Below are positions 9,123 to 55,840 of a DNA stretch of 64,000 nucleotides, one piece after another. How positions within the stretch are numbered: position 1 is the stretch's first letter; every line of letters begins with the position of its first letter. The notes under the pieces were generated by a model. That model was given only the letters and a program-made list of their open reading frames with translations. It did not search any database and was not told the DNA's origin. Source of the stretch: an uncultured Thermoplasmatales archaeon (GTDB lineage: Archaea > Thermoplasmatota > E2 > DHVEG-1); assembly GCA_964636235.1 (NCBI GenBank), contig CAZWQV010000001.1, positions 13,022 to 77,021 on the forward strand. Direction: 5' to 3'. The position numbers were made by a program, and so were the translations under genes.

Positions 9123-10091
9123 ATGAGTATAGATCAAAGGGATAAGAAATTACTATATCATTTAAGTTTAAATTCAAGAATGTCCCTAGAATCTTTAGGT
9201 AAAATATTATATCTAAGTAAAAATTCTGTAAAGTATAGAATAAAAAGATTAGAAAAGATAGGAGTAATAAAAAATTATTATACCGTGATTGATATATTTA
9301 AACTTGGATACATCTGTATTCGGTGTTATATAACTTATCAAAACATCTCTCCTGAAATAAAATATAAAATAATCAATCATTTCAAATCCAATAAAAATGT
9401 CTGCGTTGTATCCTCAATGACAGGGCCATCGAATCTTACTGTCATTTTTTGGGTAAAAAAAATTAATGAATTCCAGAAATTTTGGCTGGAAACATACAAT
9501 AAATATGGATATTTTTTTAACAAACAAAACTTATCGCTTTATTATGAAATTCATCTTTACCCATTTACATTTCTCAATATGCACGAGGATGATTTTGATA
9601 ATAAAAAAAGAGATGAAATAATCATTGGTGGAAATGTTATAGAAACCGATCAAATTGATTTTAAGATAATGAAAATGTTAGCATATAATAGTAGAATACC
9701 AATAAAAACTATAGCTAATAAATTAGATATATCCATAAGAACTGCACATTATAGAATAATAAAATTAAAAAAGATGGATATAATTCGGATTTTTACTATT
9801 AATATTGATTTTTCTAAACTGGATTTCAAATGGTTCAAAGTGGATGTTTATTTATTCGATAATAGTAAAAAAAATAATATTATTCATTATTTAAAAAATA
9901 ATCCAAATATGACGGCTATTGATATAACAACTGGTTTTTCTGATTTGGAACTTGAATTTCATGTAAAAGATATTGGACAACTTGATTGTATACTTGATGA
10001 TTTAACAAGTAAATTTAACACTTCGATAAAATATTATTCATATTTCAATATTAAAGAAAATTACAAATATTATTACTTTCCAGAAAAATAA
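9123..10091 (+). CDS. Transcriptional regulator with two tandem Lrp/AsnC-like HTH modules
   Basis: Two HTH-like segments (LSKNSVKYRIKRLEKIGVI and DISIRTAHYRIIKLKKMDII), each followed by a RAM-like region; paralogous to the ORF at 35571-36620. Confidence 0.5.
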   Translation: MSIDQRDKKLLYHLSLNSRMSLESLGKILYLSKNSVKYRIKRLEKIGVIKNYYTVIDIFKLGYICIRCYITYQNISPEIKYKIINHFKSNKNVCVVSSMTGPSNLTVIFWVKKINEFQKFWLETYNKYGYFFNKQNLSLYYEIHLYPFTFLNMHEDDFDNKKRDEIIIGGNVIETDQIDFKIMKMLAYNSRIPIKTIANKLDISIRTAHYRIIKLKKMDIIRIFTINIDFSKLDFKWFKVDVYLFDNSKKNNIIHYLKNNPNMTAIDITTGFSDLELEFHVKDIGQLDCILDDLTSKFNTSIKYYSYFNIKENYKYYYFPEK

Positions 10092-13484: not shown

Positions 13485-13557
13485 AGCCGACGGAGGGATT
13501 TGAACCCCCGACCTGCTGATTACGAATCAGCCGCACCACCAGCTATGCTACGTCGGC
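13485..13557 (-). tRNA. tRNA-Thr (anticodon CGU)
   Basis: Reverse complement folds as cloverleaf: 7-bp acceptor stem GCCGACG/CGTCGGC, anticodon loop UUCGUAA, T-arm GGGGG-TTCAAAT-CCCTC; no encoded CCA. Confidence 0.85.
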
Positions 13558-23739: not shown

Positions 23740-24027
23740 TATTATCAACCTCGATTTTAATATGTTGAAGATTTTTTGAAAAATAGCACATTCCACTAGT
23801 CCATAATATAGTGGGATGAATATTTCTGAATATCAAATACCTGAAACTTAACGAGTATTTGGATCATGTTTATGAAATTGAATCAATTATGAGTAAAGTA
23901 ACAAACAATTATTGAATGTTACGTAAGTGCTATTCTTCAATTGACACTATATGGCATAGTGCATATGTTTATTAGTTTTGCGCCATATTTAAATGTTACC
24001 CTTTTATTTCCCCTTGTGGATTGACAA

Positions 24028-28683: not shown

Positions 28684-29520
28684 TTATCCTTCTTGGACTG
28701 GGACTCTCCAATCAAGTCCAGGAGTTCGTAGTCCAATTTTTGGGATTAATGAAAGACGACGTTTATGTTGACTTGATTTTCTAAGTTGATGAATACGATT
28801 GACATCTTCGATGGAAACAGATACTTGTTGGGCAATCTTCTGCTGAGAGAGTTTACATTCCAAACCATATAATATCTGATCAAGTTGTTCATACTTTAAT
28901 CGTAGCTCTTTTTCATCAGTCTGTCCTTTCCATAATCCTGCAGTTGGAGGCTTTTTGATTATTTCTGAGGGTATATCTAAGTATCGGGCAAGTTCAAAAA
29001 CCTGTGTTTTATAGATATCTCCCAAGGGCATGATATCTACACCACCATCACCATATTTTGTGAAATACCCAATTAACAACTCTGATTTATTAGATGTACC
29101 ACATACCAAACTTTTAGTTTTATTGGCATAAGAGTATAGTAACACCATTCTCAATCGTGCCTTAATATTTGCCTTTGTTAGTTGATCTATATCAACATCC
29201 ATTGTATGAACCACAGAATCAACTAAATCTGAAATTTCAATGGTTTGGCATGATAAATGAAACCGATCCACTAATGTTTTAACATGTTCCCTATCTGATT
29301 GTGGAGTAGCCTTTTCAGGTAAAAAAAGGCAGTGAGTATTTTTTAACTCTGGCATCTGTTTGCATATAACAGCCATTACCGCAGAATCAACTCCCCCAGA
29401 AAGACCTAATACAACCGAATTGACATGAGCAGATTCAACATATGATTTAATAAAAGATTTTAAAATGATAATGGCATTTTCGGAATCAAAACTTGGTTTT
29501 AATGAAATAACATCACCTTT
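28684..29520 (-). CDS. nadE: NH3-dependent NAD+ synthetase
   Basis: GLSGGVDS PP-loop; conserved N-terminal LKPSFD block lies upstream of the first ATG (29376) and the frame is open back to a TAA (complement of 29521-29523), so the start codon is uncertain/non-canonical. Confidence 0.8.
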   Translation of the reverse strand, partial: KGDVISLKPSFDSENAIIILKSFIKSYVESAHVNSVVLGLSGGVDSAVMAVICKQMPELKNTHCLFLPEKATPQSDREHVKTLVDRFHLSCQTIEISDLVDSVVHTMDVDIDQLTKANIKARLRMVLLYSYANKTKSLVCGTSNKSELLIGYFTKYGDGGVDIMPLGDIYKTQVFELARYLDIPSEIIKKPPTAGLWKGQTDEKELRLKYEQLDQILYGLECKLSQQKIAQQVSVSIEDVNRIHQLRKSSQHKRRLSLIPKIGLRTPGLDWRVPVQEG

Positions 29521-30988: not shown

Positions 30989-31528
30989 TCATTTTTTATG
31001 AAACATAGAGTTGCCATATGCATCAATCGCAACAACAACAGGGCCAAAGTGATCAATAGTAAAGATCCATACAGCCTCTGCCATACCCAGTTCCTCAAGC
31101 CAATAAACATTTTTAACTGAGGTAATTTGATCAGCAGCGAGTGCTCCGACCCCGCCAGTATAAACAAAAAAAACCCCTTTTTCTTTTAAAGCAATTCTGG
31201 TTTTTTCTCCCATCATTCCTTTTCCAATAATTGTATTTGTATGAAATTTTTGGATGAATTCCTGTTCAAAGAGATCCATTCTTGAACTAGTAGTTGGTCC
31301 TGCAGATATCACCCGCCATTTTCCCTGTTTTTTTTCCATTAACGGCCCACAATGATAAAGTCCCATTGATTGAATATCAAAGGGAATTTTCTTTTTATCC
31401 AAAGATAATAACCGTTGATGAGCTTCATCACGGGCGGTAAAAACAGTCCCCGATAACGATACAATATCACCTACATGAAGTGAATTTAAATCATCATCTG
31501 TTAGAGGTATTGTGAGATTTGAAATCAT
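30989..31528 (-). CDS. fumB: Fumarate hydratase class I, beta (C-terminal) subunit
   Basis: 179 aa; GKGMMG motif typical of FumB/TtdB. Confidence 0.8.
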   Translation of the reverse strand: MISNLTIPLTDDDLNSLHVGDIVSLSGTVFTARDEAHQRLLSLDKKKIPFDIQSMGLYHCGPLMEKKQGKWRVISAGPTTSSRMDLFEQEFIQKFHTNTIIGKGMMGEKTRIALKEKGVFFVYTGGVGALAADQITSVKNVYWLEELGMAEAVWIFTIDHFGPVVVAIDAYGNSMFHKK

Positions 31529-31530
31529 TG

Positions 31531-32400
31531 CTACTCCACCATTTCATATCTTCCATCTTTTTTAAGAATCATTGTCGCTCTTCTGTCAGCCCAACATTGT
31601 ACTACCATTCCAACGGGTAAAGATGCAGGATGTCTTGGAGCTTTCTCAATATGAACATCTAAAACAGTTGTTTTTCCACCAAGTCCCATAGGGCCAATAC
31701 CGGTTTGGTTAATCTTTTTGATGAGATTTTTTTCAACTTTTGCCACGTTTGGATCATTATGGCGAATACCAACCGGTCGCAATAATGCCTTTTTACCCAG
31801 TTTCATAGCTAAATCCGCACCTCCACCAATGCCAATTCCAACCACAGTTGGCGGACATGGATTTCCCCCTGCGTTTTGTATTTCTCTGAGGATAAAGGAT
31901 TCCACACCTTCCATACCTTCACCTGGTTTAAGCATTACAAGCTTACTCATATTTTCACTGCCTCCACCTTTTGGAATTGCAGTTATTATAACATAATCTT
32001 CATCGATGAAATCCCAGGTGATTGCAGGGATATATTCCCCAATATTATCTTTATGATTTCTTTTAGTAAATGGGTCAAAAGTATTGGGTCGAAGAGGTAC
32101 TTCAAATGTTGCTTTTTTTACTGAAGTTAACAATAAATCTTTTAATTTTCCAATATATGGAAAATCCTTGCCAACCTCAATAAAAAAAGTCTGAACCCCG
32201 GTATCCTGACATAAAGGTCTTTTGGTTTTTTTTGCGATCTCAATATTTTTTAAAATATTTTCAAGTTGAATCCTGGCAATTCCTTCCTCTTGTTCATATG
32301 CTTTTTTTAATGCAAATATTACATCTAAAGGTAATTCAGTTTCTGCTTTTTGAATTAACCGAACTAATCCATCTACAATATATGACTCATCCATTTTCAA
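31531..32400 (-). CDS. fumA: Fumarate hydratase class I, alpha (N-terminal) subunit
   Basis: 289 aa; LCQDTGV motif; 2-bp spacing to the beta subunit. Confidence 0.82.
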   Translation of the reverse strand: MKMDESYIVDGLVRLIQKAETELPLDVIFALKKAYEQEEGIARIQLENILKNIEIAKKTKRPLCQDTGVQTFFIEVGKDFPYIGKLKDLLLTSVKKATFEVPLRPNTFDPFTKRNHKDNIGEYIPAITWDFIDEDYVIITAIPKGGGSENMSKLVMLKPGEGMEGVESFILREIQNAGGNPCPPTVVGIGIGGGADLAMKLGKKALLRPVGIRHNDPNVAKVEKNLIKKINQTGIGPMGLGGKTTVLDVHIEKAPRHPASLPVGMVVQCWADRRATMILKKDGRYEMVE

Positions 32401-32434: not shown

Positions 32435-33421
32435 TCACCTATATGTAATCATTCCGTGTGACTCATAAATATTTTCGATCAAATTTTTCATTTGATCATA
32501 GGTAGAAATCTTTAATATATCTGATTTAAATTGTGTATTATTCATCATTGCTGAAAAATATTTTGGAATGCTCTTTCGAGATCGAATTATTCCTTGTTTT
32601 TCACCATAAAATTGACATTGATATTTTACATGTTTCAAAGAAACAGTCTTTCTTTCTTTTAAAATTGGTGGTTGATAATATTGATTATGTAGATACTGAT
32701 GTAATTCAAGAACAATCCATGGATTACCGATTAATGATCGGCCAGGCATGACAGCATCAGCATGGGTCTTCTGTAAAATCTTTTTTGCATTTTCTCCAGT
32801 TATTCCCCCATTTGCTATGACTGGAATTGATATCATTCTCTTTGCTCTTGCAATACAATTATAATCAATAAAAGAACCGAATTTTCTATCACCTGGTCTT
32901 CCGTGTATAATTAATGCACTTGCCCCTGCCTTTTCTAATTTTTTCGCAAGTGATACAATATTTTTTGTTGCATCAGAAAAACCAGTTCTTAATTTTACTG
33001 ATACTGGTATTTTCACGGCATCAACAACTTGATGGACAATAGATTGCGCTAATTGTTCATTTTTCATAAGCGCAACCCCTTGCCCTTTCTTAATCACTTT
33101 TTTAACAGTACATCCCATATTGATATCTATAAAATCAAATCCTTTCAATTCCAATACTTTTGCTGCATCTGCCATTTCATCTGGACTATTTCCAACTAGT
33201 TGAGATCCTTTCAGATGATTTCCAGATTCCATTTGAAGTATTTTTTCGGTTTTTTGATTTTTTTCAAGGACGGCACGAGCATTTACCATTTCAGTAATGA
33301 TACAACAGGGAGAAAAAGATGCTAACAGTTTTCTAAAGGGAAAATCAGTATAACCACTAAGTGGTGGAAGCATATATTGATAGGACCGTATTTTTTGTTG
33401 AAAATCAGAAGTATTAATCAT
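32435..33421 (-). CDS. dus: tRNA-dihydrouridine synthase
   Basis: TIM-barrel flavoenzyme motifs (PLSGYTDFPFR, IDINMGC, HGR). Confidence 0.8.
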   Translation of the reverse strand: MINTSDFQQKIRSYQYMLPPLSGYTDFPFRKLLASFSPCCIITEMVNARAVLEKNQKTEKILQMESGNHLKGSQLVGNSPDEMADAAKVLELKGFDFIDINMGCTVKKVIKKGQGVALMKNEQLAQSIVHQVVDAVKIPVSVKLRTGFSDATKNIVSLAKKLEKAGASALIIHGRPGDRKFGSFIDYNCIARAKRMISIPVIANGGITGENAKKILQKTHADAVMPGRSLIGNPWIVLELHQYLHNQYYQPPILKERKTVSLKHVKYQCQFYGEKQGIIRSRKSIPKYFSAMMNNTQFKSDILKISTYDQMKNLIENIYESHGMITYR

Positions 33422-33466: not shown

Positions 33467-35431
33467 TTATTGACGGTTTTTCACAAGTGTATCGACAATA
33501 CTTGGATCTGCAAGTGTGCTTGTGTCTCCCAGTTGATCTAAATTGCCATCAGCAATTTTACGTAGGATACGTCTCATGATTTTTCCAGATCTTGTTTTTG
33601 GAAGACCTTCAGTGTATTGGATTTTATCTGGACTTGCTATAGCCCCTATTTCCTCTCGAACGGTTTTGACAAGTTCTTTAGTAAGATTATCATCAACCGT
33701 TTCACCTGCCTTTAAGGTGACATATGCATAGATTCCTTGTCCTTTTATATCATGTGGGAATCCAACGACTGCTGCTTCTGCAACTTTCTTATGTTTCCCA
33801 AGTGCACCTTCCACTTCAGCAGTTCCAATTCGATGGCCTGATACGTTGATAACATCATCTACTCGACCAGTGATCCAATAGTATCCATCATTATCTCTAT
33901 AAACACCATCACCTGTGAAATATAGGCCGGGATATACTGAGAAATAGGTTTCTTTAAATCGTTTATGGTCTCCATAGACTGTTCTCATAAGTCCGGGCCA
34001 TGCATCTTTTATAACAAGATTACCACTGACATCATTACCTTTAATTTCAGTTCCTTGATCATCAACAACCATGGGCTCAACACCGAAGAATGGTAAAGTC
34101 GCGCTTCCTGGTTTCAATGGTGTAGCTCCTGGAAGAGGAGTAATTAAAATGCCACCAGTTTCTGTTTGCCACCAGGTATCAACAATAGGACATCGTTTTC
34201 CTCCAACGAGATTATAATACCAATGCCATTCTTTCGATTTAATTGGTTCACCCACAGTTCCTAGAAGTTTTAATGAAATAAGATCATGTTCTTTTACCCA
34301 TTCATCTCCCTCTCTCATTAGAGCTCGAAGGGCAGTTGGAGCAGTATAGAAGCTATTTACTTGATATTTTTCACAAATAGCCCAGAATCTTCCCCAATCT
34401 GGATAGTTAGGAACTCCTTCGTACATGATTGTAGTTGCCTTATTTGTAAGTGGACCATAGACAATATATGAATGCCCTGTAATCCAGCCAATATCGGCAG
34501 TACACCAATAAATATCTCCGGGGTGATAATCAAATACATATTTGTGAGTGACTGCTGCATAAACAAGATATCCACCCGTTGTATGTAGTACGCCTTTTGG
34601 TTTTCCAGTTGAACCAGATGTATATAAAATAAATAATGGATCTTCTGCATCCATTTTTTCTGGTGGACAGACCGGGTCTGCATTTTTCATTTCTTCATGC
34701 CACCAACAGTCTTTATCAGAAAATGCAACTTCCTTACCTACACGCTTTACCACAATAACAGATTCGATACTTGGAGTATCTTTTACTGCTTTGTCAGCTG
34801 TTACTTTCATGGGAAGTGGTTTTGCTCCTCGAACACCCTCATCTTGAGTGATAAGAATTTTACATTCTGAATCATTAATTCTATCTCGAAGTGAATCTGC
34901 TGAAAAACCTCCGAAAACGATAGAGTGAATTGCGCCAATTCGTGAACAGGCAAGCATTGATATTGCTAATTCTGGAACCATCTGGAGATAAATGCAAACT
35001 CGATCTCCTTTTTTGACCCCTTTGCTTTTCAAAACGTTTGCAAATTTTTGAACTTCATCAAGAAGCTCTTTGTAGGTAAATTCTTTATCCTGAGTTGGCT
35101 CATTTCCTTCCCAGATTATAGCAATATCATCTCCATATCCATTTTCGACATGTCTATCTAAGCAATTATAGGAAACATTAAGTTTACCATCAACAAACCA
35201 TTTTATTTTTGCATCATTAAAGTCGCAGTCTTTTACTTTTGTCCATTTTTTAAACCAGCTTACTTGTTCTTCTGCTAATTTTGCCCAAAATCCTTCCGGA
35301 TCTTTCACTGATTCTTCGTACATTTTTTTGTATTCTGACATATTTTTTATATATGCGCGATTACTAAATTCTGGATTTGGTGCATAAGTTGGAATAGTTG
35401 TTTCTTCAGCCATATTTTTTAATTCCTCCAT
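33467..35431 (-). CDS. acs: Acetyl-CoA synthetase (AMP-forming)
   Basis: 654 aa; [14 protein letters not shown]-binding motif, Acs-type N-terminal domain, C-terminal [11 protein letters not shown]. Confidence 0.9.
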
Positions 35432-35570: not shown

Positions 35571-36620
35571 TTAAATTTCAAGAATCTTTTTAGTAATTGG
35601 TGCAAAATCAAAATGCTTTAAAAATTCCATTTGGTCAAACATATATTTTCTAACAAGCGGTGTATAACTTATAAAATCATTCTCTTTTAAAAAACGAATT
35701 TTTTGCATTTTATCCTCTTTATAATTTTGATATGAGGGATATGCAGAAATAATAACACTTTCAAATCGTCTACTTGCAAGAAAAATCGTAGAAGGTGTAT
35801 CAAGAACTGAGATATCTTCTTTAGATGGTGGTTTTCCAGGATTATATTGGAAATGATAAAATGCAAGAATTTCAAAACCCAACTTATGTAAATTTGGTAT
35901 GGTAAGATTTTTCATTAATTTGAGTTGATAAAACTTGTTTTTTAAACGAGAAACAGTATGTCTTGAAAGATTTACTATATCTCCTATTTTTTGGGTTGTT
36001 TTTTGAGGATATTCAATCAAGGTAGCAAAAACAAGTTTTTCTTTTTTTGAAAGAGGGATAGGTTTTCCATTTTTAAACCATTGTTCATCCGTTGCATTGT
36101 TAGTATTATCAATATTATAATATGTACCTAGTGTTCTACCGTAATTAAAAAATCGAATGATATTGCTTGTTTGAAAAGGAAAAATCATCTCTGATGGATA
36201 TTCATTTTCAAGTAATCCTAATTTCCCAAATGTTTCAGTTCTAATATCATTAATTTTTCCAATATTAGTATAATTTTTTGATAAACTTATTGAAAAACCC
36301 TTTTCTTGTATACCCGTAGAATAAAATATTTCATCGTAAATTTCAATTGATTCTTTTGCCCGCTCAATTCGTTCTTTTAATGGAATGATAGGATTGAATT
36401 CTGAGTGAATTACGGCTAATAATTCACTACCTAGTTTGTTTAGAAGAGGAATGCGAATTTGTTTAAATGCATCATGTTCTATTAATCGTCTTTTTATTGA
36501 TGTAAATGTTGAAAGTTTTACATTGATTATCTCAGATAATGCACTATCATTAAGCTCTGGATAGGTGACAAGTCCAAATAGTACCTTTTGTTCATTTTTT
36601 GTTAATTCTATATGATTCAC
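35571..36620 (-). CDS. Transcriptional regulator with two tandem Lrp/AsnC-like HTH modules (paralog of 9123-10091)
   Basis: Internal duplication (LTKNEQKVLFGLV ... IKRRLIEHDAF // LSKKEKLVFATLI ... SRLKNKFYQL); divergent from the acn-aclBA-icd operon. Confidence 0.5.
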   Translation of the reverse strand: MNHIELTKNEQKVLFGLVTYPELNDSALSEIINVKLSTFTSIKRRLIEHDAFKQIRIPLLNKLGSELLAVIHSEFNPIIPLKERIERAKESIEIYDEIFYSTGIQEKGFSISLSKNYTNIGKINDIRTETFGKLGLLENEYPSEMIFPFQTSNIIRFFNYGRTLGTYYNIDNTNNATDEQWFKNGKPIPLSKKEKLVFATLIEYPQKTTQKIGDIVNLSRHTVSRLKNKFYQLKLMKNLTIPNLHKLGFEILAFYHFQYNPGKPPSKEDISVLDTPSTIFLASRRFESVIISAYPSYQNYKEDKMQKIRFLKENDFISYTPLVRKYMFDQMEFLKHFDFAPITKKILEI

Positions 36621-36832
36621 ATAAAACGAAAATGATTAAGGTTTTATATAATTTTCTCATTTTCACTAAAAATGATATCAATTAATATTATTTTGATAAT
36701 TATTATAACAATTTTGCTCATAATAACGAATTATAGACACAAGAAATAGATTATTGCCGAATTGAAAGGGAAAACATTTATTAAATAGACAAACATTTAT
36801 TCGCAAAAATCTCAAATCAAGAGGTTTCCACC

Positions 36833-38773
36833 ATGGGAAAGTCAATAACTGAAAAAATACTTGACAAACATATTGTCAAAGGAACTCCTGAAAAAGGAGA
36901 AGAAGTTGGGATTAGAATTGATCAAACCTTAACCCAAGATGCTACTGGCACTATGGCATATCTTCAATTTGAGGCTATGAAAGTGCCAAAAGTCAAAACA
37001 GAATTATCGGTAAGCTATGTCGACCATAATACAGTTCAAATTGGATTTGAAAATGCAGATGATCATAAATATTTACAAAGTGTAGCTGCAAAATATGGAA
37101 TAGTATATTCAAGAGCAGGTAATGGCATCTGTCATCAAGTTCATCTTGAAAGATTTGGAAAACCTGGAAAGACATTGCTTGGATCTGATTCCCATACCCC
37201 AACAGGTGGGGGCATTGGAATGATTGCAATAGGCGCTGGTGGACTAGATGTAGCAGTAGCAATGGCCGGTGGTCCATTTTATCTAACTTGCCCTAAGGTA
37301 ATAAAGGTTAATTTGAAAGGAAAACTTAAACCATGGTGTGCCGCAAAAGATGTTGTTCTAAAAGTTTTAGAAAAATTCACCACAAAAGGTAACGTTGGAA
37401 AAGTCTTTGAATATTCCGGCCCTGGCGTAAAAACATTAAATGTACCTGCCCGAGCAACGATTACGAATATGGGTGCCGAGTGCGGTGTTACTACAAGTGT
37501 GTTCCCAAGTGATGATATTACCAAAGAATTCTTGAAAGCACAAGGTAGGGAAGATGATTGGATTGGTCTTACCGCCGATGATGACGCAACATATGATGAA
37601 GTTGTGGAAATCAATTTAAGTGAAATTGAACCATTAGCTGCAACCCCACATAGCCCAGGAAATATCAGTAAAGTAAAAGATCTAGAAGGGATGAAAGTTG
37701 ATCAAGTGTGTGTGGGAAGTTGTACAAATTCATCATATAGAGACCTTATGACAGTTGCTAAAATAATTGAAGGGAAAACAGTTCATCCCGATGTAAGTTT
37801 TGTTGTTGCACCAGGGTCAAGGCAGGTCATTCAAAATATTGCAAAAGACAGTGGTCTTACTAGCATTTTAAATGCTGGTGCTCGTCTTGCTGAATCAGCT
37901 TGTGGTTTTTGTATCGGAAATAGCCAATCACCAAAAACTGACGCAGTTAGTCTTCGAACAAGTAATCGTAACTTTTTAGGTAGAAGTGGAACAAAAAGTG
38001 CAAATGCTTATTTAGTTAGTCCTGAAACAGCAGCAGCAGCCGTATTAACTGGAGAATTTACCGATCCTAGAGATTTAGAAAAGAAGGGCATTAAATATCC
38101 AAACGTAAAAATGCCTATGAAATTCATCATTGATGATTCCATGTTTATCTTCCCAAAAGATGCGAAAAAAACAGAGATTTATCGTGGACCAAATATTGGA
38201 GATCCACCTGAAGCAGAACCATTGAAAGATACTATCAAAGGCGATGTTACTATTAAAGTTGAAGATAAAATCACAACGGATCATATCATTCCAGCCGGAT
38301 CAAAAATGAAATATCGAAGTAATGTTCCAAAATACTCAGAATTTTTATTTGAAGTGGTTGATCCAACATTTCATGATAGAGCAAAACAACTCAAGGAAAG
38401 AGGAAGAGATAACATCATTGTAGCAGGTCTCTCATATGGACAAGGTAGTAGCAGAGAACATGCTGCATTATGTCCTATGTATATGGGTGTGAAAGCAGTC
38501 ATTGCAAAATCAATAGAACGAATCCATAATGCAAATCTGATTAATTTTGGTATTTTACCATTGAATTTTAAAAATGAAAAAGACTATGATACAATAGACC
38601 AAGGGGACGAACTGGAGATTCCAAACATTAAATCAATTTTAAAGGATGGAAAAAATTTAATAGTGAAAAATAAAACGAAAGGAACTGAATTTGAAGTTAC
38701 CTACAATCTTTCTGATAGGCAAAAAAATGTATTGCTTGCAGGAGGAACACTTGCATTTATGAAAGATAAATAA
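36833..38773 (+). CDS. acn: Aconitate hydratase (catalytic plus swivel domains, 646 aa)
   Basis: Aconitase family motifs (IRIDQTLTQDATG, GSDSHT, CTNSS, SYGQGSSREHAA swivel); first gene of operon with ACL and IDH. Confidence 0.82.
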   Translation: MGKSITEKILDKHIVKGTPEKGEEVGIRIDQTLTQDATGTMAYLQFEAMKVPKVKTELSVSYVDHNTVQIGFENADDHKYLQSVAAKYGIVYSRAGNGICHQVHLERFGKPGKTLLGSDSHTPTGGGIGMIAIGAGGLDVAVAMAGGPFYLTCPKVIKVNLKGKLKPWCAAKDVVLKVLEKFTTKGNVGKVFEYSGPGVKTLNVPARATITNMGAECGVTTSVFPSDDITKEFLKAQGREDDWIGLTADDDATYDEVVEINLSEIEPLAATPHSPGNISKVKDLEGMKVDQVCVGSCTNSSYRDLMTVAKIIEGKTVHPDVSFVVAPGSRQVIQNIAKDSGLTSILNAGARLAESACGFCIGNSQSPKTDAVSLRTSNRNFLGRSGTKSANAYLVSPETAAAAVLTGEFTDPRDLEKKGIKYPNVKMPMKFIIDDSMFIFPKDAKKTEIYRGPNIGDPPEAEPLKDTIKGDVTIKVEDKITTDHIIPAGSKMKYRSNVPKYSEFLFEVVDPTFHDRAKQLKERGRDNIIVAGLSYGQGSSREHAALCPMYMGVKAVIAKSIERIHNANLINFGILPLNFKNEKDYDTIDQGDELEIPNIKSILKDGKNLIVKNKTKGTEFEVTYNLSDRQKNVLLAGGTLAFMKDK

Positions 38774-38787
38774 GAAGGGGTAAACGT

Positions 38788-40074
38788 ATGGCACAAAAAG
38801 GTATAAGAGAGTATGATGCAAAAAGAATGATGGCGAAAGCTTTACCTGAGTATTCAAATGGAAAAATCAAATTTGAAGCAAAACAGGTATTGATTGGTCC
38901 TGACACAGATCTGAATAAACTTGAAAAAGAAAATCCTTGGCTTAAAAAAGAAAAATTAGTTGCTAAACCGGATCAATTATTCGGAAAAAGAGGGAAAAAT
39001 AATCTTCTTTATGTCAATAAATCATGGGATGAAGTGAAAAAGTGGATCAAGGAACGAATGAACAAAAAAGTTACTATCAAACAAACAACTGGTGAAACCA
39101 CAGGTGTTCTTACTCATTTTCTGGTGGAAAAATTTGTACCTCATAAAGAAGAATATTACGTTGCTATCACCACCCATAGAGAAAAAGATATTATCCATTT
39201 TTCTATGAAAGGTGGTGTAAATATCGAAGAAGTATGGGATAGCGTTGTCACTCTTGAAATTCCTATATTAAAATCAATTGACGAGGTAAATGTAGAAAAA
39301 TTTTTACCAAAAGAACTTGGTGATAAAAAAGAAAAAGTAGCATTATTTATAAAAACAATTTACAAGATGCTGGTGGATTATCATTTTGTCTATTTGGAAT
39401 TGAATCCATTCACTTTTGTAAATAATGAACCTGTTGCTCTAGATACTGTTGCAAAAGTCGATGATTATGCTTCATATCAATGTGCTGAAAAATGGGGAAA
39501 TCTGAAATTTCCCAGCCCATTTGGACTTAATAAAATAAAAGAGGAAGAGCGAGTGGATGACCTTGACGAACGAACAGGTGCATCATTAAAATTAACCGTA
39601 CTAAATCCTGAAGGACGTATATGGAATTTAGTTGCTGGTGGTGGTGCAAGCGTTATTTACGCTGATACAGTTGCAGATCTTGGATTTACTGATGAGCTTG
39701 CAAATTATGGTGAATACAGTGGTAATCCAAGTACTGAGCTTACCTATGAATATACAAAAACAATCCTTGATCTTATGACAAGATCTAAAGATAAAAAAGG
39801 ACGTCCAAAATTTTTGATTATTGGTGGAGGAATAGCTAATTTCACTGATGTTGCTAAAACATTCACAGGAATTATTCAAGCTATAGATGAATATGCAGAT
39901 AAACTAAAGAAAACCAATGTAAAAATATATGTCAGGAGAGGTGGACCAAATTATAAAGAGGGGCTTGAAAACATGAGAAGACTTGGGAAAAAACTTGGCC
40001 TTCCAATTGAGGTGTACGGTCCCGAAACACATATGACACGTATTGTTTCAATGGCTCTTAAAGGAGGTGAATGA
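38788..40074 (+). CDS. aclB: ATP-citrate lyase beta subunit (ATP-grasp, SucC-like)
   Basis: 428 aa ATP-grasp protein; 3 bp from the aclA start. Confidence 0.78.
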   Translation: MAQKGIREYDAKRMMAKALPEYSNGKIKFEAKQVLIGPDTDLNKLEKENPWLKKEKLVAKPDQLFGKRGKNNLLYVNKSWDEVKKWIKERMNKKVTIKQTTGETTGVLTHFLVEKFVPHKEEYYVAITTHREKDIIHFSMKGGVNIEEVWDSVVTLEIPILKSIDEVNVEKFLPKELGDKKEKVALFIKTIYKMLVDYHFVYLELNPFTFVNNEPVALDTVAKVDDYASYQCAEKWGNLKFPSPFGLNKIKEEERVDDLDERTGASLKLTVLNPEGRIWNLVAGGGASVIYADTVADLGFTDELANYGEYSGNPSTELTYEYTKTILDLMTRSKDKKGRPKFLIIGGGIANFTDVAKTFTGIIQAIDEYADKLKKTNVKIYVRRGGPNYKEGLENMRRLGKKLGLPIEVYGPETHMTRIVSMALKGGE

Positions 40075-40077
40075 TCT

Positions 40078-41958
40078 ATGGCATCACAAAAAGCAAAGCA
40101 AATAAAAAAATTACCTGATTATGAATTATTTGACAAAAATACCAAAGCTTTTATCTATGGGACTCAACAAAAAGCAGCCCAACGCATGCTTGACTTTGAT
40201 TACATGTGTGGCCGCGGAGAACCAAGTGTAGTAGGTTTTATTACTCCAACAGGTGGAGGATATTATCAATTATTCTGGGGTACAAAGGAAATTCGAATTC
40301 CTCGATACACAAGTATCAATGAGGCAATCAAAGCACATCCTGAAGCAGATGTTATGGTCAATTTTGCCTCCGAACGTTCATGTGCTGAATCAACCATGGA
40401 AGCATTGGAAACCGACACCATTAGAACCATTATCATGATTGCAGAGGGAGTTCCTCAAAGAGATGTAAGAAAAATCGCAAAAATTGCTAAGGACAAAAAG
40501 AAATGGATTATTGGTCCAGCGACCGTTGGAGGTATCAAACCAGGTTGCTTTAAAATTGGTAATGCTGCAGGAACATCTCAAAATATTAAGGATACAAAGT
40601 TATATCGGCCTGGATCTGTAGGATTTGTTTCGGTCTCTGGTGGTTTATCAAATGAAGGATACAATATTGTAGCACAAAACACAGATGGTATTTACGAAGG
40701 ATATGCAGTGGGTGGTGATGTGTACCCGGCAACAACATTACTAGATCATCTTTTACGGTATGAAAAAAATCCTAACATAAAGATGATGGTTAGTCTTGGA
40801 GAAGTTGGGGGAAAGGACGAGTATGATATCGTGGATGCGATAAAACAGGAAAAAATCACAAAACCCTTGGTTATGTGGGTAACTGGTACCTGTGCTGAAA
40901 TGCTACCCGGTGGCGTTCAATTCGGCCATGCTGGTGCAAAAGCAGAAGGAAAAGAAGATACCGCAGCGGCAAAAAATAAAGCGTTAAAAGATGCAGGAGT
41001 CGTCGTTCCTGATTCATTTGATGATTATGGGGAAAAAATCAATGAAACATTTTTGAAACTGAAAAAACAGGGAAAAATCCAGGAAATTGATGAACCAACT
41101 CCCCCACATATTCCAATGGATTACAAACAGGCTGTGGCTGAAGGTCTTGTTAGAAAACCAACAAATTTCATTTCAACTATCTGTGATGAAACTGGTGAAA
41201 TTCATAATTATTGTGGAGTTCCTATAGATGAAGTTATTAAAAAAGGATATGGCATCGGAGGAGTGCTCGGTCTCTTATGGTTTAAAAAGGATCTACCAAA
41301 ATATGCAAGAGAATTTATCGAACTTGTGATTCAAATTGTAGCAGATCATGGACCTGCAGTATCTGGTGCTCATAACACGATTGTCACCGCAAGAGCAGGA
41401 AAAAGCCTTATTGAATCAATCATCAGCGGTATTGTAACAATTGGCCCTCGTTTTGGAGGTGCAGTAAATGGAGCTGCAAAACATTTTTCATTAGGACTTG
41501 AAAAAGAATTAGAGCCACGTGAATTTGTTGATTATATGAAAAAACAAAATATTCGGATCCAAGGAATCGGACATCGAATTCATAGCATCGACAATCCTGA
41601 TGAACGGGTGGAAATAATGATCAACTATGCCAAAAAACATTTTCCAAAGCATCCATTGCTCGATTATGCATTACAAGTTCAAGCGGTTACCACTATGAAA
41701 AAGAATACATTAATATTAAATGTTGATGGATGTATCGGAGTGCTCTTTGTTGATATGCTTATCAACCTTGGATACTCAAAAGATGAAATTAAAGAAATGA
41801 TTGATATGGGATTCTTTAATGCATTTTTCATTATCGGTAGAACCATGGGATTCATGGGCCATTATTTCGATCAAAAACGATTGAAAACACCATTATACCG
41901 TCATCCATGGGACGATATTTTATATGATGTTCCGAAAAAACCAGAAAAAGTAGAATAG
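40078..41958 (+). CDS. aclA: ATP-citrate lyase alpha subunit (CoA-binding + phosphohistidine + citrate-synthase-like domain)
   Basis: GHAGA phosphohistidine motif; C-terminal citrate-synthase-like IGHRIHSIDNPDERV, diagnostic for ACL rather than succinyl-CoA synthetase. Confidence 0.8.
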   Translation: MASQKAKQIKKLPDYELFDKNTKAFIYGTQQKAAQRMLDFDYMCGRGEPSVVGFITPTGGGYYQLFWGTKEIRIPRYTSINEAIKAHPEADVMVNFASERSCAESTMEALETDTIRTIIMIAEGVPQRDVRKIAKIAKDKKKWIIGPATVGGIKPGCFKIGNAAGTSQNIKDTKLYRPGSVGFVSVSGGLSNEGYNIVAQNTDGIYEGYAVGGDVYPATTLLDHLLRYEKNPNIKMMVSLGEVGGKDEYDIVDAIKQEKITKPLVMWVTGTCAEMLPGGVQFGHAGAKAEGKEDTAAAKNKALKDAGVVVPDSFDDYGEKINETFLKLKKQGKIQEIDEPTPPHIPMDYKQAVAEGLVRKPTNFISTICDETGEIHNYCGVPIDEVIKKGYGIGGVLGLLWFKKDLPKYAREFIELVIQIVADHGPAVSGAHNTIVTARAGKSLIESIISGIVTIGPRFGGAVNGAAKHFSLGLEKELEPREFVDYMKKQNIRIQGIGHRIHSIDNPDERVEIMINYAKKHFPKHPLLDYALQVQAVTTMKKNTLILNVDGCIGVLFVDMLINLGYSKDEIKEMIDMGFFNAFFIIGRTMGFMGHYFDQKRLKTPLYRHPWDDILYDVPKKPEKVE

Positions 41959-41973
41959 TGGAGGATTCAACAT

Positions 41974-44205
41974 ATGAGTAAAGATGAAAAAATAATTTAC
42001 ACAAAGGTTGATGAAGCACCAGCTTTAGCAACCTGCTCTTTTCTTCCCGTTGTAAAAACTTTTTCGGATGCAGCTGAGATCAATATTGAAACAAGAGATA
42101 TCTCTCTTGCGGGAAGAATCATTGCTCGATTTCCTGAAAATCTAACAGATGAACAAAAGCAATCAGATGATCTTGCAGAGCTTGGAGAACTGGTAAAAAA
42201 ACCAGAAGCAAATATAATCAAATTACCGTGTATCAGTGCTTCTATCCCACAATTAAATGCTGCCGTTAAGGAATTACAAAAGAAAGGGTATCAGATTCCT
42301 GATTATCCTGAGGAACCAGAAACTGATAAAGAAATGGAAATCAAAGTACGGTTTGATAAAATCAAGGGTAGCGCCGTGAATCCGGTACTTCGTATGGGAA
42401 ACTCCGATAGACGAGTACCTGACCCTGTGAAAAACTATGCAAAGAAACATCCTCATCCAATGGGTGAATGGTCAGCAAGTTCAAAATCACATGTTGCTCA
42501 TATGAAAAAAGGTGATTTACGTTCAAATGAGAAATCAACCACGATCACAAAAGATGATGAAGGTATTGCTAGAATTGAATTGTTGAAAGAAGATGGATCT
42601 GTGCATGTTTTAAAGGAAAAACTTCCTTTAATTCAAGGCGAAATAATTGATGCATCTGTCCTAAGTAAAAAAGCCCTTCGATTATTTATTGAAAAACAGA
42701 TTGACGATGCAAAACAAAAAGACATTTTATTCTCAGTACATCTAAAAGCAACCATGATGAAAGTTTCGGATCCCATTATTTTTGGTCATGTTGTATCTGT
42801 CTTTTTTAAAGATGTATTTGAAAAACATGCTGAAACATTTAAACAGCTCGGGATCAGTCCAAACAATGGTCTTGGGGATTTATATGCCAAAATTAAGCAA
42901 TTACCGGATAATCAACGAAAAGAGATTGAACAGGATATTAAAGCGTGTTATAAAAAACAACCGAAACTTGCGATGGTAAACTCAGATAAAGGCATTACAA
43001 ATCTTCATGTCCCATCAGATGTTATTATTGATGCTTCCATGCCAGCTGCCATTAGAAATTCAGGAAAGATGTGGGGACCAGATGGCAAAGCATATGATAC
43101 GAAATTTGTCATTCCGGATAGTAGTTATGCAGGAGTATATCAAACAGTTATAGAATTCTGTAAAAAACATGGTGCCTTTGATCCAACAAGCATGGGAACT
43201 GTTCAGAACGTGGGATTAATGGCTCAAAAGGCAGAGGAGTATGGATCGCATGATAAAACCTTTGAGATTGCTGAGAAAGGAATAGTACAAGCAGTTTCAG
43301 AATCAGGGACAGTACTGCTTGAACAAGCTGTTGAGCAAGGCGATATCTTCCGTATGTGCCAGGTGAAGGATTTACCGATTCAAGACTGGGTGAAACTTGC
43401 GGTTAATAGAGCAAAAACAACTGGATTTCCTGCCGTATTTTGGCTTGATAAAACAAGAGCACATGATGCTGAACTAATTAAAAAAGTAAATGTCTATTTG
43501 AAAAATTATGACACAAACGATCTTGAGATTCATATCAAATCACCTGTTGAAGCAACCCAGTTTTCCTGTGAATTAATAGCAAACGGAAAAAACACCATCG
43601 CCGTTACAGGAAATGTTCTTAGGGATTATTTAACTGATCTATTTCCAATTCTTGAAGTGGGAACCAGTGCTAAAATGCTTTCCATTGTTCCTCTTATGAA
43701 GGGCGGTGGATTGTTTGAAACAGGTGCTGGCGGATCTGCTCCAAAACATGTACAGCAATTTAATGAGGAAGGACATTTACGTTGGGATTCACTTGGGGAA
43801 TTTTTAGCACTTGCTGCTTCATTTGAGCATTATAGCAAACGAACAAATAACGAAAAGGCGCATATTCTTAGCAAAACCCTTGATAGAGCAACTGAAAAGT
43901 TTCTTGAAACAAATAAATCTCCATCTCGAAAAGTGAACGAACGAGACAATCGTGGAAGTCATTTTTATTTAGCAATGTACTGGGCAGAAGCATTGGCACA
44001 GCAAACAGAGGATACATCATTAAAAGAACGGTTTTCAAATCTTTTCAACAAGTTAAAAGAAAAGGAAGACATCATCAATAATGAATTACTTGGCGCACAG
44101 GATAAAACCGTGGATATCAACGGATACTACAAACCTGATGATAAATTAGCAAGTAAAGCGATGCGTCCAAGTGAGACATTTAATTCAATCCTCGATGCAT
44201 TTTAA
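41974..44205 (+). CDS. icd: Monomeric NADP-dependent isocitrate dehydrogenase
   Basis: 743-aa single-chain IDH, length and N-terminus typical of the monomeric IDH family. Confidence 0.85.
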
Positions 44206-44237
44206 GGATGATACGATCATCCTTTTCGTATTTTTTA
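44205..44237 (+). terminator. Stem-loop (AAGGATGAT-ACG-ATCATCCTT) plus T-tract at end of acn-aclBA-icd operon
   Basis: 9-bp perfect inverted repeat starting at the icd stop, followed by TTCGTATTTTTT. Confidence 0.55.
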
Positions 44238-44271
44238 TCCAATATTTATTTAATTAACAAATCAATAAATT

Positions 44272-47743: not shown

Positions 47744-48166
47744 ATGAAAACAAAAAGCGCAGGATTAATGTGCATTGGGATTATGCTTATCATTGCAATG
47801 GCAATCCCTGCAATAGCAAATCAAAACGATACAACCTTGGAATTTGTTGGAATCAGTGGCGGATTTGGCGGAGTGACCGTCGAAGTTGAAAACACAGGAA
47901 ATGCCGTTGCTTCAGGAATAACAATGACAACAACCATTCAAGGCGGCATATTGAATGGAATTGATTTAACACACTTTTGTGGTGGGTGTGAAGACTGTGG
48001 AACAACACTTGGACCAGGCACAATTAAAACAGAAAACACCATGGAAGCAGGGTTAATAATGGGATTTGGCCCAGTACAAATAACTTGTGTTGCTGCAGCA
48101 GAAAACGCCCAAGAAGTATCATCCGAAGCAAGTGGATTTGTCATTGGCCCAATGATATTAATATAA
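47744..48166 (+). CDS. Small secreted Gly/Thr-rich protein of unknown function
   Basis: N-terminal signal/anchor MKTKSAGLMCIGIMLIIAMAIPAIA; four Cys in CGGCEDCG. Confidence 0.35.
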   Translation: MKTKSAGLMCIGIMLIIAMAIPAIANQNDTTLEFVGISGGFGGVTVEVENTGNAVASGITMTTTIQGGILNGIDLTHFCGGCEDCGTTLGPGTIKTENTMEAGLIMGFGPVQITCVAAAENAQEVSSEASGFVIGPMILI

Positions 48167-48191: not shown

Positions 48192-49112
48192 ATGCAAATT
48201 TCGGATACTATTTCAAAAAAAATTGAAATATTAAAAGAAAAGCAAGATGCGCTTATCCTTGTTCATAATTATCAACGACCTGAAATACAAGATATAGCGG
48301 ATTTTTTAGGAGATTCTTTTGCACTTTCAAAACAAGCAGAAAAAAGTTCACATCATGTGATTATTTTTTGTGGTGTAGATTTCATGGTCGAAAGTGCAAA
48401 AATATTAAGTCCTGATAAAAAAGTAATTCATCCTGACCTTGAAGCAAAATGCCCAATGGCAGCAATGGTAGAACCTGAACCATTGTCAATGTTGAAAGAA
48501 AAACATCCTCATGCTGCAGTAGTCTCATATGTTAACACATCTGCTGAAATTAAAGCACTGAGTGATATTTGTTGTACATCTTCTAATGCAGTAAAAATCA
48601 TAAAAAGCTTGAAGGAAAAGAAAATAATTTTTGTTCCAGATACAAATCTTGGCCTTTATATCAAACGATTTGTAACAAATAAAGAGATTATTATTTGGCC
48701 TGGAATATGTCCTACTCATCATAAAATTAAAAAAAATGATATTGCACAATTAAAACAACATCATCCTTCAGCAATAGTTCTTGTTCATCCTGAATGCAAT
48801 CCAGATGTTATTGATATAGCAGATCATGTTCTTTCAACACAAGGAATGATTAATCATGTAAAAGATTCACCTCATGATGAATTCATTATAGGAACTGAAA
48901 AAGAGATTTGTTATCGTTTAAAAAAAGAAAATCCGAACAAGCATTTTTATGCGATAGAAAAAGCTTTATGTCCTAACATGAAAAAAATCAAACTTCAGCA
49001 TGTGGTAAACAGTTTAGAAACATTATCACCACAGATATTTCTAGATGTTAATACGATTAAAAAGGCAAAAATTCCACTTCAAAAAATGTTAATGGTTGGA
49101 AGAGGAGATTAA
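48192..49112 (+). CDS. nadA: Quinolinate synthase
   Basis: 306 aa; ILVHNYQ N-terminal motif; three Cys Fe-S ligands at NadA-like positions. Confidence 0.85.
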   Translation: MQISDTISKKIEILKEKQDALILVHNYQRPEIQDIADFLGDSFALSKQAEKSSHHVIIFCGVDFMVESAKILSPDKKVIHPDLEAKCPMAAMVEPEPLSMLKEKHPHAAVVSYVNTSAEIKALSDICCTSSNAVKIIKSLKEKKIIFVPDTNLGLYIKRFVTNKEIIIWPGICPTHHKIKKNDIAQLKQHHPSAIVLVHPECNPDVIDIADHVLSTQGMINHVKDSPHDEFIIGTEKEICYRLKKENPNKHFYAIEKALCPNMKKIKLQHVVNSLETLSPQIFLDVNTIKKAKIPLQKMLMVGRGD

Positions 49113-51657: not shown

Positions 51658-52896
51658 ATGCTGAGATTTTCAAATAAATACATTAGAATAGTAATCGTTA
51701 TAGCTATGCTCCTAGTAATTAATATTGCTATTATATCCTTGGTACTTTCAAATTTAATAGGATTAGAAGCCCCTGAAATAACCATGAAAATCGAAATCAG
51801 TGAAGCAACTGAAGAAAATATTATCATTGAAAGTACATTATTTATATCAAACCCTAATTCTTTTTCAGCAGAATTGAAAGATTTTAAATTAATGATAACA
51901 ACTGAATCAGGTTATGAAATTGGGACCACAGATATTCCAAATATTCTCCTCCCATCAGATGACTCAATCAATTTTAGCTCTGATACAAATTTTAAATTAA
52001 GCGGGGAAAAATTTCATATTTTAAATAGTAAAATAACTGGAAATTTACAAGTTCATCTACTTGGAATTTTTAATAAAAACCTACCTGTAAGTATACACAT
52101 AATAACCAATCCAACTACATTAATAGATGCCGTAGCCCTCCCACAAATAAATGCCAAAATCAACTCATATGATTTGACCAGCCAAGGATTGAAGATAACA
52201 GGAATATTAGACATTGTAAATGCAAATACAATCGGGTTTAAAATAAACCAAACCACTCTCTCTTTTTCAGATTCTACTGGTGATAATTACGGAACATTAA
52301 TTATAAACACAACCACAATTCCAGCCAAACAAACAATTTCTCAACCATTCACTGGCATTATATCATATGAAATTTTCAACAAAGGCACATTATTTATGAG
52401 ACTGTCAGGTAATACAAATGTCATTATTGGAGGATTTATTAAAGAACTGCCCTTTAACGTCACTACTGCGATTGCAATACCTGATTTCCAATCATTTCTT
52501 CTTTATGATCAAAATTTTAGTATTACCCTTTTTACAGATGTAGATTTCACTTATAAATCAGTAAATGCAGAAATTGGAGTGATCTATAAGAATCCCACAG
52601 AGATCCCATTCAAAGCATACAATCTTACCACCAGTATCTATAGAATTTATGAATCTGGAAAAACCTTACTTGCTAATGACTTCATATCGGAACAATCATA
52701 TCCACCTAAATCTGAAACAATCCTTACATCGAATTTCACCTTAACGTATTTAGAATTAATCCCAAATTTTTCAAAAGGACCTGCCAAATGGTTGGAAGTT
52801 TTTTTATACGTCGAATTTAGTATCGGAGAATCAAATCAAAGAATTCCAGTGACTATTAAAGGATTAATAAGCCCATCCATAATCGGTGTTGATTGA
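51658..52896 (+). CDS. Membrane-anchored protein with three LEA_2 / WHy-like repeats
   Basis: N-terminal TM helix; three about 120-aa repeats each beginning (I/L)xIExxLxISNPNxFS-like. Confidence 0.45.
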   Translation: MLRFSNKYIRIVIVIAMLLVINIAIISLVLSNLIGLEAPEITMKIEISEATEENIIIESTLFISNPNSFSAELKDFKLMITTESGYEIGTTDIPNILLPSDDSINFSSDTNFKLSGEKFHILNSKITGNLQVHLLGIFNKNLPVSIHIITNPTTLIDAVALPQINAKINSYDLTSQGLKITGILDIVNANTIGFKINQTTLSFSDSTGDNYGTLIINTTTIPAKQTISQPFTGIISYEIFNKGTLFMRLSGNTNVIIGGFIKELPFNVTTAIAIPDFQSFLLYDQNFSITLFTDVDFTYKSVNAEIGVIYKNPTEIPFKAYNLTTSIYRIYESGKTLLANDFISEQSYPPKSETILTSNFTLTYLELIPNFSKGPAKWLEVFLYVEFSIGESNQRIPVTIKGLISPSIIGVD

Positions 52897-55831: not shown

Positions 55832-55840
55832 TTGTCATAT

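Follow-up and report, generated by a model that had tools for sequence, protein, structure and literature searches.

A candidate reductive, citrate-cleaving acn-aclB-aclA-icd operon shared between Thermoplasmatota and Cloacimonadota

The presence of ATP-citrate lyase (ACL) in an archaeal genome raises the question of where the enzyme came from and in which direction its pathway is run. We have explored this question in an uncultured Thermoplasmatales archaeon, using a stretch of 64,000 nucleotides (positions 13,022 to 77,021 of contig CAZWQV010000001.1, assembly GCA_964636235.1; hereafter the window) in which acn (aconitase), aclB and aclA (the two ACL subunits) and icd (isocitrate dehydrogenase, IDH) follow one another as a compact unit. 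Based on our comparisons, we favour on balance the view that this operon is an inter-domain cassette, present in Thermoplasmatota and in the bacterial Cloacimonadota, that would work mainly in the reductive, citrate-cleaving direction from 2-oxoglutarate. ACL in this archaeal lineage and the Cloacimonadota cluster are both already published; what is new is the sharing of the cassette across domains, which none of the papers we found describes (our coverage of the literature being incomplete).

Open reading frames (ORFs) of the window with at least 100 aa were scanned against the profile libraries Pfam, NCBIfam or both. The four cassette genes all lie on the forward strand. The first, acn (36833-38773, 646 aa), encodes an aconitate hydratase, which NF005558 recognizes with 961 bits (cutoff 612) and to which PF00330 and PF00694 match as well. 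It is followed by aclB (38788-40074, 428 aa), encoding the ACL beta subunit, in which both the ATP-grasp domain (PF24948, E = 9.6e-76, 254.6 bits, cutoff 83) and the citrate-binding domain (PF16114, E = 6.2e-87) are recognized and which aligns end to end, over residues 1-425, with ACLY-A of Methanosaeta concilii (6HXI_A, 531 bits). The alpha subunit, encoded by aclA (40078-41958, 626 aa), combines a CoA-binding domain (CoA_binding, PF02629), a phosphohistidine CoA-ligase domain (Ligase_CoA, PF00549) and a citryl-CoA-lyase module (Citrate_synt, PF00285, at aa 401-608). It matches ACLY-B of Methanothrix (Methanosaeta concilii; 6HXI_B) with 812 bits over 611 residues, and residues 491-1097 of human ACLY with 766 bits. 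Its phosphohistidine motif GHAGA, at aa 283-287 (nt 40924-40938), aligns with the GHAGA of the M. concilii and human enzymes; GHRIHSIDNPDERV is found at aa 498-511; and the catalytic Asp550, in LILNVDG (NVDG at nt 41719-41730), aligns with the Asp of 6HXI that is Ala in the 6ZNW mutant. Matches to the Chlorobium limicola enzyme (6HXJ) are weaker, at 421 bits for AclA and 159 bits for AclB. To judge from these alignments, the window ACL belongs to a Methanothrix/eukaryote-like branch and not to the Chlorobium type, and its identity as a bona fide two-subunit ACL, rather than a succinyl-CoA synthetase, is supported. An earlier description made from the letters of the window (the sequence-only reading) had called AclA a true ACL, with the GHAGA motif and a citrate-synthase-like block. 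The profile searches of AclA and AclB, which place the PF00285 domain in AclA, the end-to-end alignments to known ACLs and the retention of the His and Asp residues all agree with that description.

The last gene, icd (41974-44205, 743 aa), encodes a monomeric NADP-dependent IDH, as had also been proposed: TIGR00178 matches with 1286 bits (cutoff 950), the PF03971 match covers 1-734 of 734, and the protein is 69% identical to the Azotobacter vinelandii IDH (1ITW) over 736 residues. His592, Arg603 and Arg652 align with H589, R600 and R649 of A. vinelandii, the residues that bind the NADP 2'-phosphate (PMC13147460; structure 1J1W). The A. vinelandii enzyme (1ITW/1J1W) thus shares the His/Arg/Arg triad with the window IDH, but its host is an aerobic gammaproteobacterium whose cycle is oxidative, and it has no linkage to ACL.

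The four genes are separated by 14, 3 and 15 nt. Shine-Dalgarno-like motifs precede acn (AGAGGT, 7 nt 5' of the ATG), aclB (GAAGGGGT), aclA (GGAGGTGA) and icd (GGAGGA), and the same check of the operon region finds none before the first gene downstream of icd. Upstream, a predicted archaeal promoter element resembling the B recognition element (BRE) and TATA box, AAAACATTTATTAAAT, lies at 36771-36786 (+), about 50 nt 5' of the acn ATG, and is near-invariant in an alignment of the trmB-acn intergenic region from 13 related loci, of which 12 come from Thermoplasmatota bins. Downstream, the terminator (44204-44241, +) consists of a hairpin that overlaps the icd stop codon, with TTTTCGTATTTTTT directly 3' of it, including runs of four and six T. 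The hairpin itself (44204-44224; 9 bp, 3-nt loop) folds with -10.1 kcal/mol and z = -3.2, and none of 200 shuffled sequences folds as well. With one strand, short spacers, one upstream promoter element and one downstream terminator, the four genes look like a single operon, in line with the tight operon and the stem-loop/T-tract terminator of the sequence-only reading.

The distribution of this unit was followed by tblastn of the window proteins against 68 loci from a genome scan with AclA (one genome per species). The cassette is carried by about 24 Thermoplasmatota and at least 12 Cloacimonadota species representatives, and the best AclA matches (84-92%) are to metagenome-assembled genomes (MAGs) of uncultured Thermoplasmatales or Thermoplasmatota. 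Across the archaeal MAG contigs, and on the 1.79-Mb contig CP070836.1, a single order is kept: fum-acs-regulator on one side, acn-aclB-aclA-icd, and a PRK04017-like gene on the other. In Cloacimonadota the cassette has the same order, with identities to the window proteins of 80-84% (acn), 77-82% (aclB), 83-85% (aclA) and 70-73% (icd), and none of the archaeal flanking genes accompanies it in these loci. Instead, on contigs of up to 313 kb, the flanks encode a type IX secretion system (T9SS) sorting domain, SpoIIE phosphatases, a TAXI-type binding protein of a tripartite ATP-independent periplasmic (TRAP) transporter, T2SS-F, a bacterial prepilin peptidase and TetR, in a context that varies between lineages. 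Both sets of contigs are genuine to their domain, with archaeal markers in the window and bacterial-only families around the Cloacimonadota cassettes. Since the same four genes occur in the same order and at 70-85% identity in both domains, the cassette moved between domains as a unit. The identity of window AclA falls from 85% in Cloacimonadota to 68-70% in Bipolaricaulota, Myxococcota and Acidimicrobiia, 60% in another Thermoplasmata lineage, 58% in Methanothrix and 50% in a further archaeal MAG; it is 56% with the corresponding part of human ACLY.

The transcription signals differ between the two host groups. Downstream of icd, nearly every Thermoplasmatota locus has oligo-T runs, as do few of the Cloacimonadota loci, two of which have strong bacterial intrinsic terminators and two of which have divergent TetR genes. 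Each host has fitted the cassette with its own expression signals: BRE/TATA, a duplicated TrmB-like regulator and oligo-T in the archaea, and TetR or no regulator, with intrinsic terminators or read-through, in the bacteria. The published Cloacimonadota cluster (Williams et al. 2021, PMC8542988, where ACL, aconitase and IDH are noted in one cluster), that of Ca. Celaenobacter and its relatives, agrees with the window in all four genes, in their order and in their orientation. It differs in its bacterial host and flanks, in the TetR that replaces the duplicated TrmB-like protein in two loci, in having no conserved oligo-T terminator and in an AclA that is devoid of the 11-residue N-terminal extension of window AclA. 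The archaeal two-subunit enzyme of Methanothrix soehngenii (Methanosaeta concilii; ACLY-A/B, 6HXI/6ZNW) shares the domain order, the phosphohistidine and the Asp, but at 58% identity its AclA lies outside the clade formed by the window and its bacterial relatives. Around the bacterial copies, the one possible metabolic partner that recurs is the TAXI-type solute-binding gene, and neither 2-oxoglutarate:ferredoxin oxidoreductase (OGOR) nor fumarate reductase (FRD) is linked there. This TAXI-family gene lies directly 3' of icd in four related Cloacimonadota loci (L015, L016, L026 and L032), and its product may take up a C4/C5 dicarboxylate or glutamate that feeds the module.

Phylogeny of single genes and concatenations, by bootstrapped neighbour-joining with Myxococcota/Acidimicrobiia or PDB sequences as outgroups, places Thermoplasmatota and Cloacimonadota in one clade with 100% bootstrap in the aclB+aclA, acn+aclB+aclA and PDB-rooted icd trees. 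The ACL and concatenated trees support the monophyly of Cloacimonadota at 100%; the icd tree supports it at 74% and shows the two groups as reciprocally monophyletic. In the concatenated tree, the branching of Cloacimonadota with respect to the Thermoplasmatota subclades is supported at 21-37%, and the tree of acn only makes them sister to the window and L001 (76%). Human and Methanothrix sequences fall outside the window clade in the AclA tree. A search of 5.8 billion proteins with icd returned, among the 120 matches listed, only close relatives at 75-79% besides the window's own protein, the few named ones being Thermoplasmatota or Thermoplasmatales; since no distant icd stood among these matches, PDB sequences were taken as outgroups. 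For ACL as for IDH, bacterial sequences are the next relatives, so the ultimate source of the cassette is likely to be bacterial, and the last hop could have gone in either direction between Thermoplasmatota and Cloacimonadota. The horizontal acquisition put forward in the sequence-only reading, with AclA and IDH phylogenies as the way to check it, is thereby strongly supported as a horizontal exchange: the joint clade with Cloacimonadota bacteria, the 70-85% identity of their cassette and the bacterial next relatives all point the same way.

The transfer is not recent. GC content of the cassette is 3.5-6 points above that of its flanks in every archaeal locus, and this composition was considered as a sign of recent transfer and rejected: third-position GC (GC3) of the four genes is 0.205-0.258, against a window mean of 0.218 +/- 0.032, and the excess lies at first codon positions, a pattern that acs and dnaG show too. 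This host-like codon-position GC, together with the single unvarying context in which over 20 Thermoplasmatota species-level MAGs carry the cassette, argues for an older transfer, and the inter-domain move predates the diversification of the sampled members of either group.

What would the cassette do? As follows from their enzymology, the three enzymes catalyse one contiguous and reversible stretch within the tricarboxylic acid (TCA) cycle, which overall would read 2-oxoglutarate + CO2 + NADPH + ATP + CoA <-> acetyl-CoA + oxaloacetate + NADP+ + ADP + Pi, via isocitrate and citrate. In anaerobic peptide degraders the module would run mainly in the reductive, citrate-cleaving direction, turning 2-oxoglutarate from glutamate or transamination, or from OGOR, into acetyl-CoA and oxaloacetate. 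It would then be the citrate arm of a flow of the reductive TCA (rTCA) type, autotrophic only if OGOR, FRD and pyruvate:ferredoxin oxidoreductase (PFOR) were encoded elsewhere in the genome. We favour this direction because both host groups are anaerobic degraders of protein and amino acids, because the Cloacimonadota carriers are devoid of citrate synthase and succinate dehydrogenase (SDH) and possess OGOR and thiol:fumarate reductase, and because published reconstructions infer it. In Cloacimonadota MAGs the reductive direction was deduced from the presence of ACL, OGOR and thiol:fumarate reductase and the lack of citrate synthase and SDH (PMC8542988), and in a Great Salt Lake Thermoprofundales MAG from ACL and hydrogenases (PMC11287216). 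A protein-degrading metabolism fed by peptides and glutamate also fits the two C25 peptidases of the window. These gingipain-like genes stand in tandem at 5814-7322 and 7319-9013 (-), and the pair is also found near the cassette in CP070836.1 (L073 1-2397).

Several points weigh against this assignment. The contents of the window fix no flux direction, all three enzymes are reversible, and the ACL reaction is near equilibrium. All our trees are neighbour-joining trees, and operon status is drawn from spacing and signals. Among the ORFs scanned in the 64-kb window there is no OGOR, PFOR or FRD. Further points belong to the rival that fares best, which we regard as possible without being probable: ACL would be an ATP-conserving citrate synthase and the operon the oxidative, anabolic arm of a horseshoe TCA cycle, leading from acetyl-CoA (for instance from acetate through the adjacent acs) and oxaloacetate to citrate and ATP, then to isocitrate, and on to 2-oxoglutarate and NADPH for glutamate. 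The ACL of Desulfobacter postgatei is said to work in this way, as an ATP-yielding citrate synthase (reportedly the finding of Moller et al. 1987, cited in PMC9768450). That organism is likewise an anaerobe, but it is a respiratory acetate oxidiser with a complete cycle, and the likeness is drawn without sequence comparison. Citrate synthase is absent from the Cloacimonadota carriers (10 of 10 Ace Lake MAGs), so ACL could be their citrate-forming enzyme. The closest relatives outside the cassette, with ACL and IDH paired, are in Bipolaricaulota-type genomes described as Wood-Ljungdahl acetogens (PMC11287216), in which an oxidative branch to 2-oxoglutarate would be the natural reading; a complete TCA cycle is reported to be missing from the DHVEG-1 MAG of Great Salt Lake; and the AMP-forming acs, a conserved neighbour in the archaeal lineage, fits acetate assimilation. 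However, peptide fermenters that secrete C25 peptidases are unlikely to be short of glutamate or 2-oxoglutarate, published reconstructions from MAGs point to the reductive direction in both host groups, and TCA-cycle genes have been reported in Thermoprofundales MAGs without ACL. A separately regulated, extra set of acn, icd and ACL hints at a distinct role. So far as is known, the characterized ACLs other than that of D. postgatei cleave citrate.

The reductive reading can also be taken further, in a form that we offer tentatively and with considerable doubt. The cassette may be a portable inter-domain module for reductive carboxylation, providing the sole route from glutamate-derived 2-oxoglutarate to acetyl-CoA and oxaloacetate in protein fermenters without SDH and citrate synthase; it would resemble IDH1/ACLY metabolism rather than carbon fixation, and would have been passed between Thermoplasmatota and Cloacimonadota in shared anoxic, protein-rich sediments, the last step perhaps from archaeon to bacterium. 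The counterpart named for it is the IDH1/ACLY pathway of hypoxic animal cells. Human ACLY and IDH1 take part in the reductive carboxylation of glutamine-derived 2-oxoglutarate. That route comprises the same three steps, from 2-oxoglutarate to isocitrate, citrate, and acetyl-CoA plus oxaloacetate, as a functional parallel only: unlike in the window, human ACLY is one fused polypeptide and the IDH is of the dimeric type.

We consider it unlikely that the operon cleaves citrate as one step in a complete, CO2-fixing rTCA cycle, which is the main interpretation in the sequence-only reading and also that of PMC11287216. ACL is the usual marker of that cycle, fumarase is a conserved neighbour of the cassette, the related Great Salt Lake Thermoprofundales MAG with ACL and hydrogenases of groups 3b, 3c and 4d was called a facultative autotroph (PMC11287216), and Kor and Por oxidoreductases are found in most Thermoprofundales MAGs (PMC6461988). 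Against this, the 64 kb contain, besides the oxidoreductases already named as missing, no succinyl-CoA synthetase and no pyruvate or phosphoenolpyruvate carboxylase; the organism has peptidases typical of heterotrophs; and its ACL falls in the Methanothrix/eukaryote-like branch (812 and 766 bits) and not in the Chlorobium-type rTCA branch (421 bits). The proposal of an rTCA citrate-cleavage module in the sequence-only reading therefore holds for the citrate-cleavage enzyme itself, ACL being present, and finds no OGOR, PFOR or FRD in the window to complete it. Chlorobium limicola (6HXJ) and other Chlorobiota, Campylobacterota, Aquificota and Nitrospirota have an ACL with the same reaction and two-subunit layout, but these classical rTCA organisms are demonstrated autotrophs with OGOR, PFOR and FRD. 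In Nitrospirota, Aquificota and Campylobacterota the rTCA genes often lie together, those for IDH and aconitase included (PMC13147460), and a metatranscriptome paper on Lake Cadagno gives ACL expression only for Chlorobiaceae. Within Thermoprofundales, ACL has been reported in one MAG (PMC11287216) and is absent from eight others (PMC6461988). An ACL-bearing DHVEG-1/Thermoprofundales MAG was reported from Great Salt Lake (PMC11287216), and one of the loci with the best AclA matches, L013, comes from 30 cm depth in Great Salt Lake north-arm sediment; DHVEG-1/Thermoprofundales is therefore the probable lineage of the host.

One flavoprotein of the window (2249-3910, -), with FAD_binding_2 and Succ_DH_flav_C domains, was considered as a fumarate reductase candidate and rejected, as it scores best as L-aspartate oxidase (510 bits, versus 292 bits for TfrA, whose cutoff is 718); it is among the points against a complete cycle. 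It shares the window with nadA (48192-49112) and nadE (28684-29376), and is probably NadB. A NadB-type gene of this kind could pass for fumarate reductase in MAG surveys.

That the inter-domain pattern is an artefact, a Cloacimonadota fragment having been mis-joined into an archaeal contig or the reverse, we judge very improbable. A cross-domain identity of 80-85% is unusual, and a 5.3-kb contig binned as Woesearchaeota (L014) does look like a binning error. However, the cassette is flanked by archaeal genes within one 64-kb window, the same junctions recur on over 15 Thermoplasmatota contigs that were assembled independently, as well as on the 1.79-Mb CP070836.1, the exact AclA protein occurs on four separate Joint Genome Institute (JGI) metagenome contigs, third-position GC equals that of the host, promoter and terminator are archaeal in type, and the copies in Cloacimonadota have bacterial flanks, on contigs that reach 313 kb. 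As for L014, its aclB, aclA and icd are 96-98% identical to those of the Cloacimonadota locus L016, and a Cloacimonadota MAG (L024, Tobar13.5m) comes from the same lake sample, so this contig is probably a binning error rather than a case of ACL in DPANN. Finally, the chance that aclB and aclA encode a succinyl-CoA synthetase or a citryl-CoA synthetase/lyase instead of ACL is next to negligible: in NCBIfam, the succinate-CoA ligase subunit models (90 and 150 bits) and the citryl-CoA lyase model all score far under their cutoffs, whereas AclB has both PF16114 and the ACL-specific ATP-grasp PF24948, and AclA, with its fused C-terminal citryl-CoA-lyase module, aligns over 611 residues to solved ACLs.

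The pairing of ACL with IDH extends beyond the cassette. Locus L044 (2730-7825), like the similar L038, L040, L043, L048 and L068 of Bipolaricaulota type, has the order iclR, a dimeric-type icd (432 aa), aclB and aclA. In six other loci a gene of the Iso_dh family, encoding about 400 aa, stands after aclA in place of the monomeric icd (L012 3846-5054, L013 10783-11973, L023 2989-4182, L027 6599-7792, L037 5061-6254 and L066 245-1426), and in two more it is additional and lies downstream of the monomeric icd (L008 4937-6142 and L049 3660-4865). The best match of this protein is to NADP-IDH, under all cutoffs. Position four of the cassette has therefore seen either an exchange or an addition. 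As the linkage of ACL and IDH genes recurs in the wider clade, the conserved functional unit would be the IDH-aconitase-ACL segment and not the whole cycle. In L027 (1773-10957, GC 62%, binned as Thermoplasmatales) a CitF-like citrate lyase alpha subunit, aclB, aclA, the Iso_dh gene, an oxaloacetate decarboxylase alpha subunit and a Na+-pumping beta subunit stand together; this locus links ACL to a sodium-translocating decarboxylase or carboxylase.

These results bear on how ACL is used in genome surveys. ACL routinely serves as a MAG marker for rTCA autotrophy, and here it travels in a self-contained acn-ACL-icd cassette between archaeal and bacterial phyla of heterotrophic sediment anaerobes. 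Because a reversible three-step module is mobile among heterotrophic lineages, ACL alone is not evidence of rTCA autotrophy, and the fact that the rest of the cycle is unlinked to the cassette weakens marker-based calls of autotrophy for Thermoprofundales and Cloacimonadota. The cassette also offers a clean multi-gene case of inter-domain transfer in central carbon metabolism, in which promoter, regulator and terminator were replaced in each host. In addition, the ACL branch shared with the Methanothrix and eukaryotic enzymes bears on the origin of eukaryotic ACLY, for which a link with Thermoplasmatota has been proposed (PMC11976288).

The archaeal surroundings of the operon follow the kept order. 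Divergent from it lies a gene for a TrmB/MarR-like regulator of 349 aa with two tandem winged helix-turn-helix (HTH) modules (35571-36620, -; PF01978 TrmB, 3.2e-07), which adjoins the cassette in 12 related loci at 55-64% identity. Comparison of its N and C halves (hhalign 98.2% probability, E = 4e-14; BLAST E = 2e-13) argues that the protein really is a tandem duplication of an HTH-containing module, in agreement with the duplicated-HTH regulator proposed earlier. A TATA-like element with a TTTTCTCATTTT box precedes this gene (36642-36663, -) as a candidate promoter/operator, and TTTCTCATTTT before it is kept in at least 80% of the 13 aligned intergenic loci. Further upstream on the reverse strand, acs (33467-35431) encodes an AMP-forming acetyl-CoA synthetase (TIGR02188, 1018 bits), and fumB/fumA (30989-32400) a two-subunit class-I fumarase (PF05681, PF05683; NF004885, 351 bits); by synteny both are kept neighbours in the archaeal lineage, and acs lies outside the transferred cassette. 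Both genes were rightly placed upstream on the other strand by the sequence-only reading; the correction is that a bacterial-type dusB, for a tRNA-dihydrouridine synthase (32435-33421, -; TIGR00737, 302 bits, cutoff 293), intervenes between fumA and acs. In L001 and similar archaeal loci there is no room for dusB between these two genes; another bacterial gene seems to have been inserted here in a lineage-specific way.

The host itself is, by the markers it carries, archaeal: the window encodes TBP (4991-5590), an archaeal DnaG (22513-23796; NF003108, 531 bits), TYW3 and Thi4, at a GC content of about 32-33%, and Thermoplasmatota appears to be the best name for it. Rfam and tRNA scans of the window gave nothing relevant, only a tRNA-Thr at 13485-13557. 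Two forward-strand ORFs (10427-11989, 520 aa, and 51658-52896, 412 aa) match no NCBIfam or Pfam family at E <= 1e-5, and a third (47744-48166, +, 140 aa), with an unusually high GC content of 41%, matches no NCBIfam family at the same threshold. A second protein with a duplicated HTH, of two AsnC-type modules, is encoded at 9123-10091 (+) by a gene with a GC content of 23%, versus 33% for the window. At 44681-47632 genes for a ferredoxin-like protein and for Hcp, the hybrid-cluster protein (829 bits), stand divergent to that of a MarR-family regulator resembling the redox regulators RrpA/RrpB, likely a nitrosative or oxidative stress unit. Lastly, a complete bacterial-type UvrA-UvrC-UvrB excision-repair cluster occupies 53024-59322 (+) and also adjoins the cassette region in CP070836.1.

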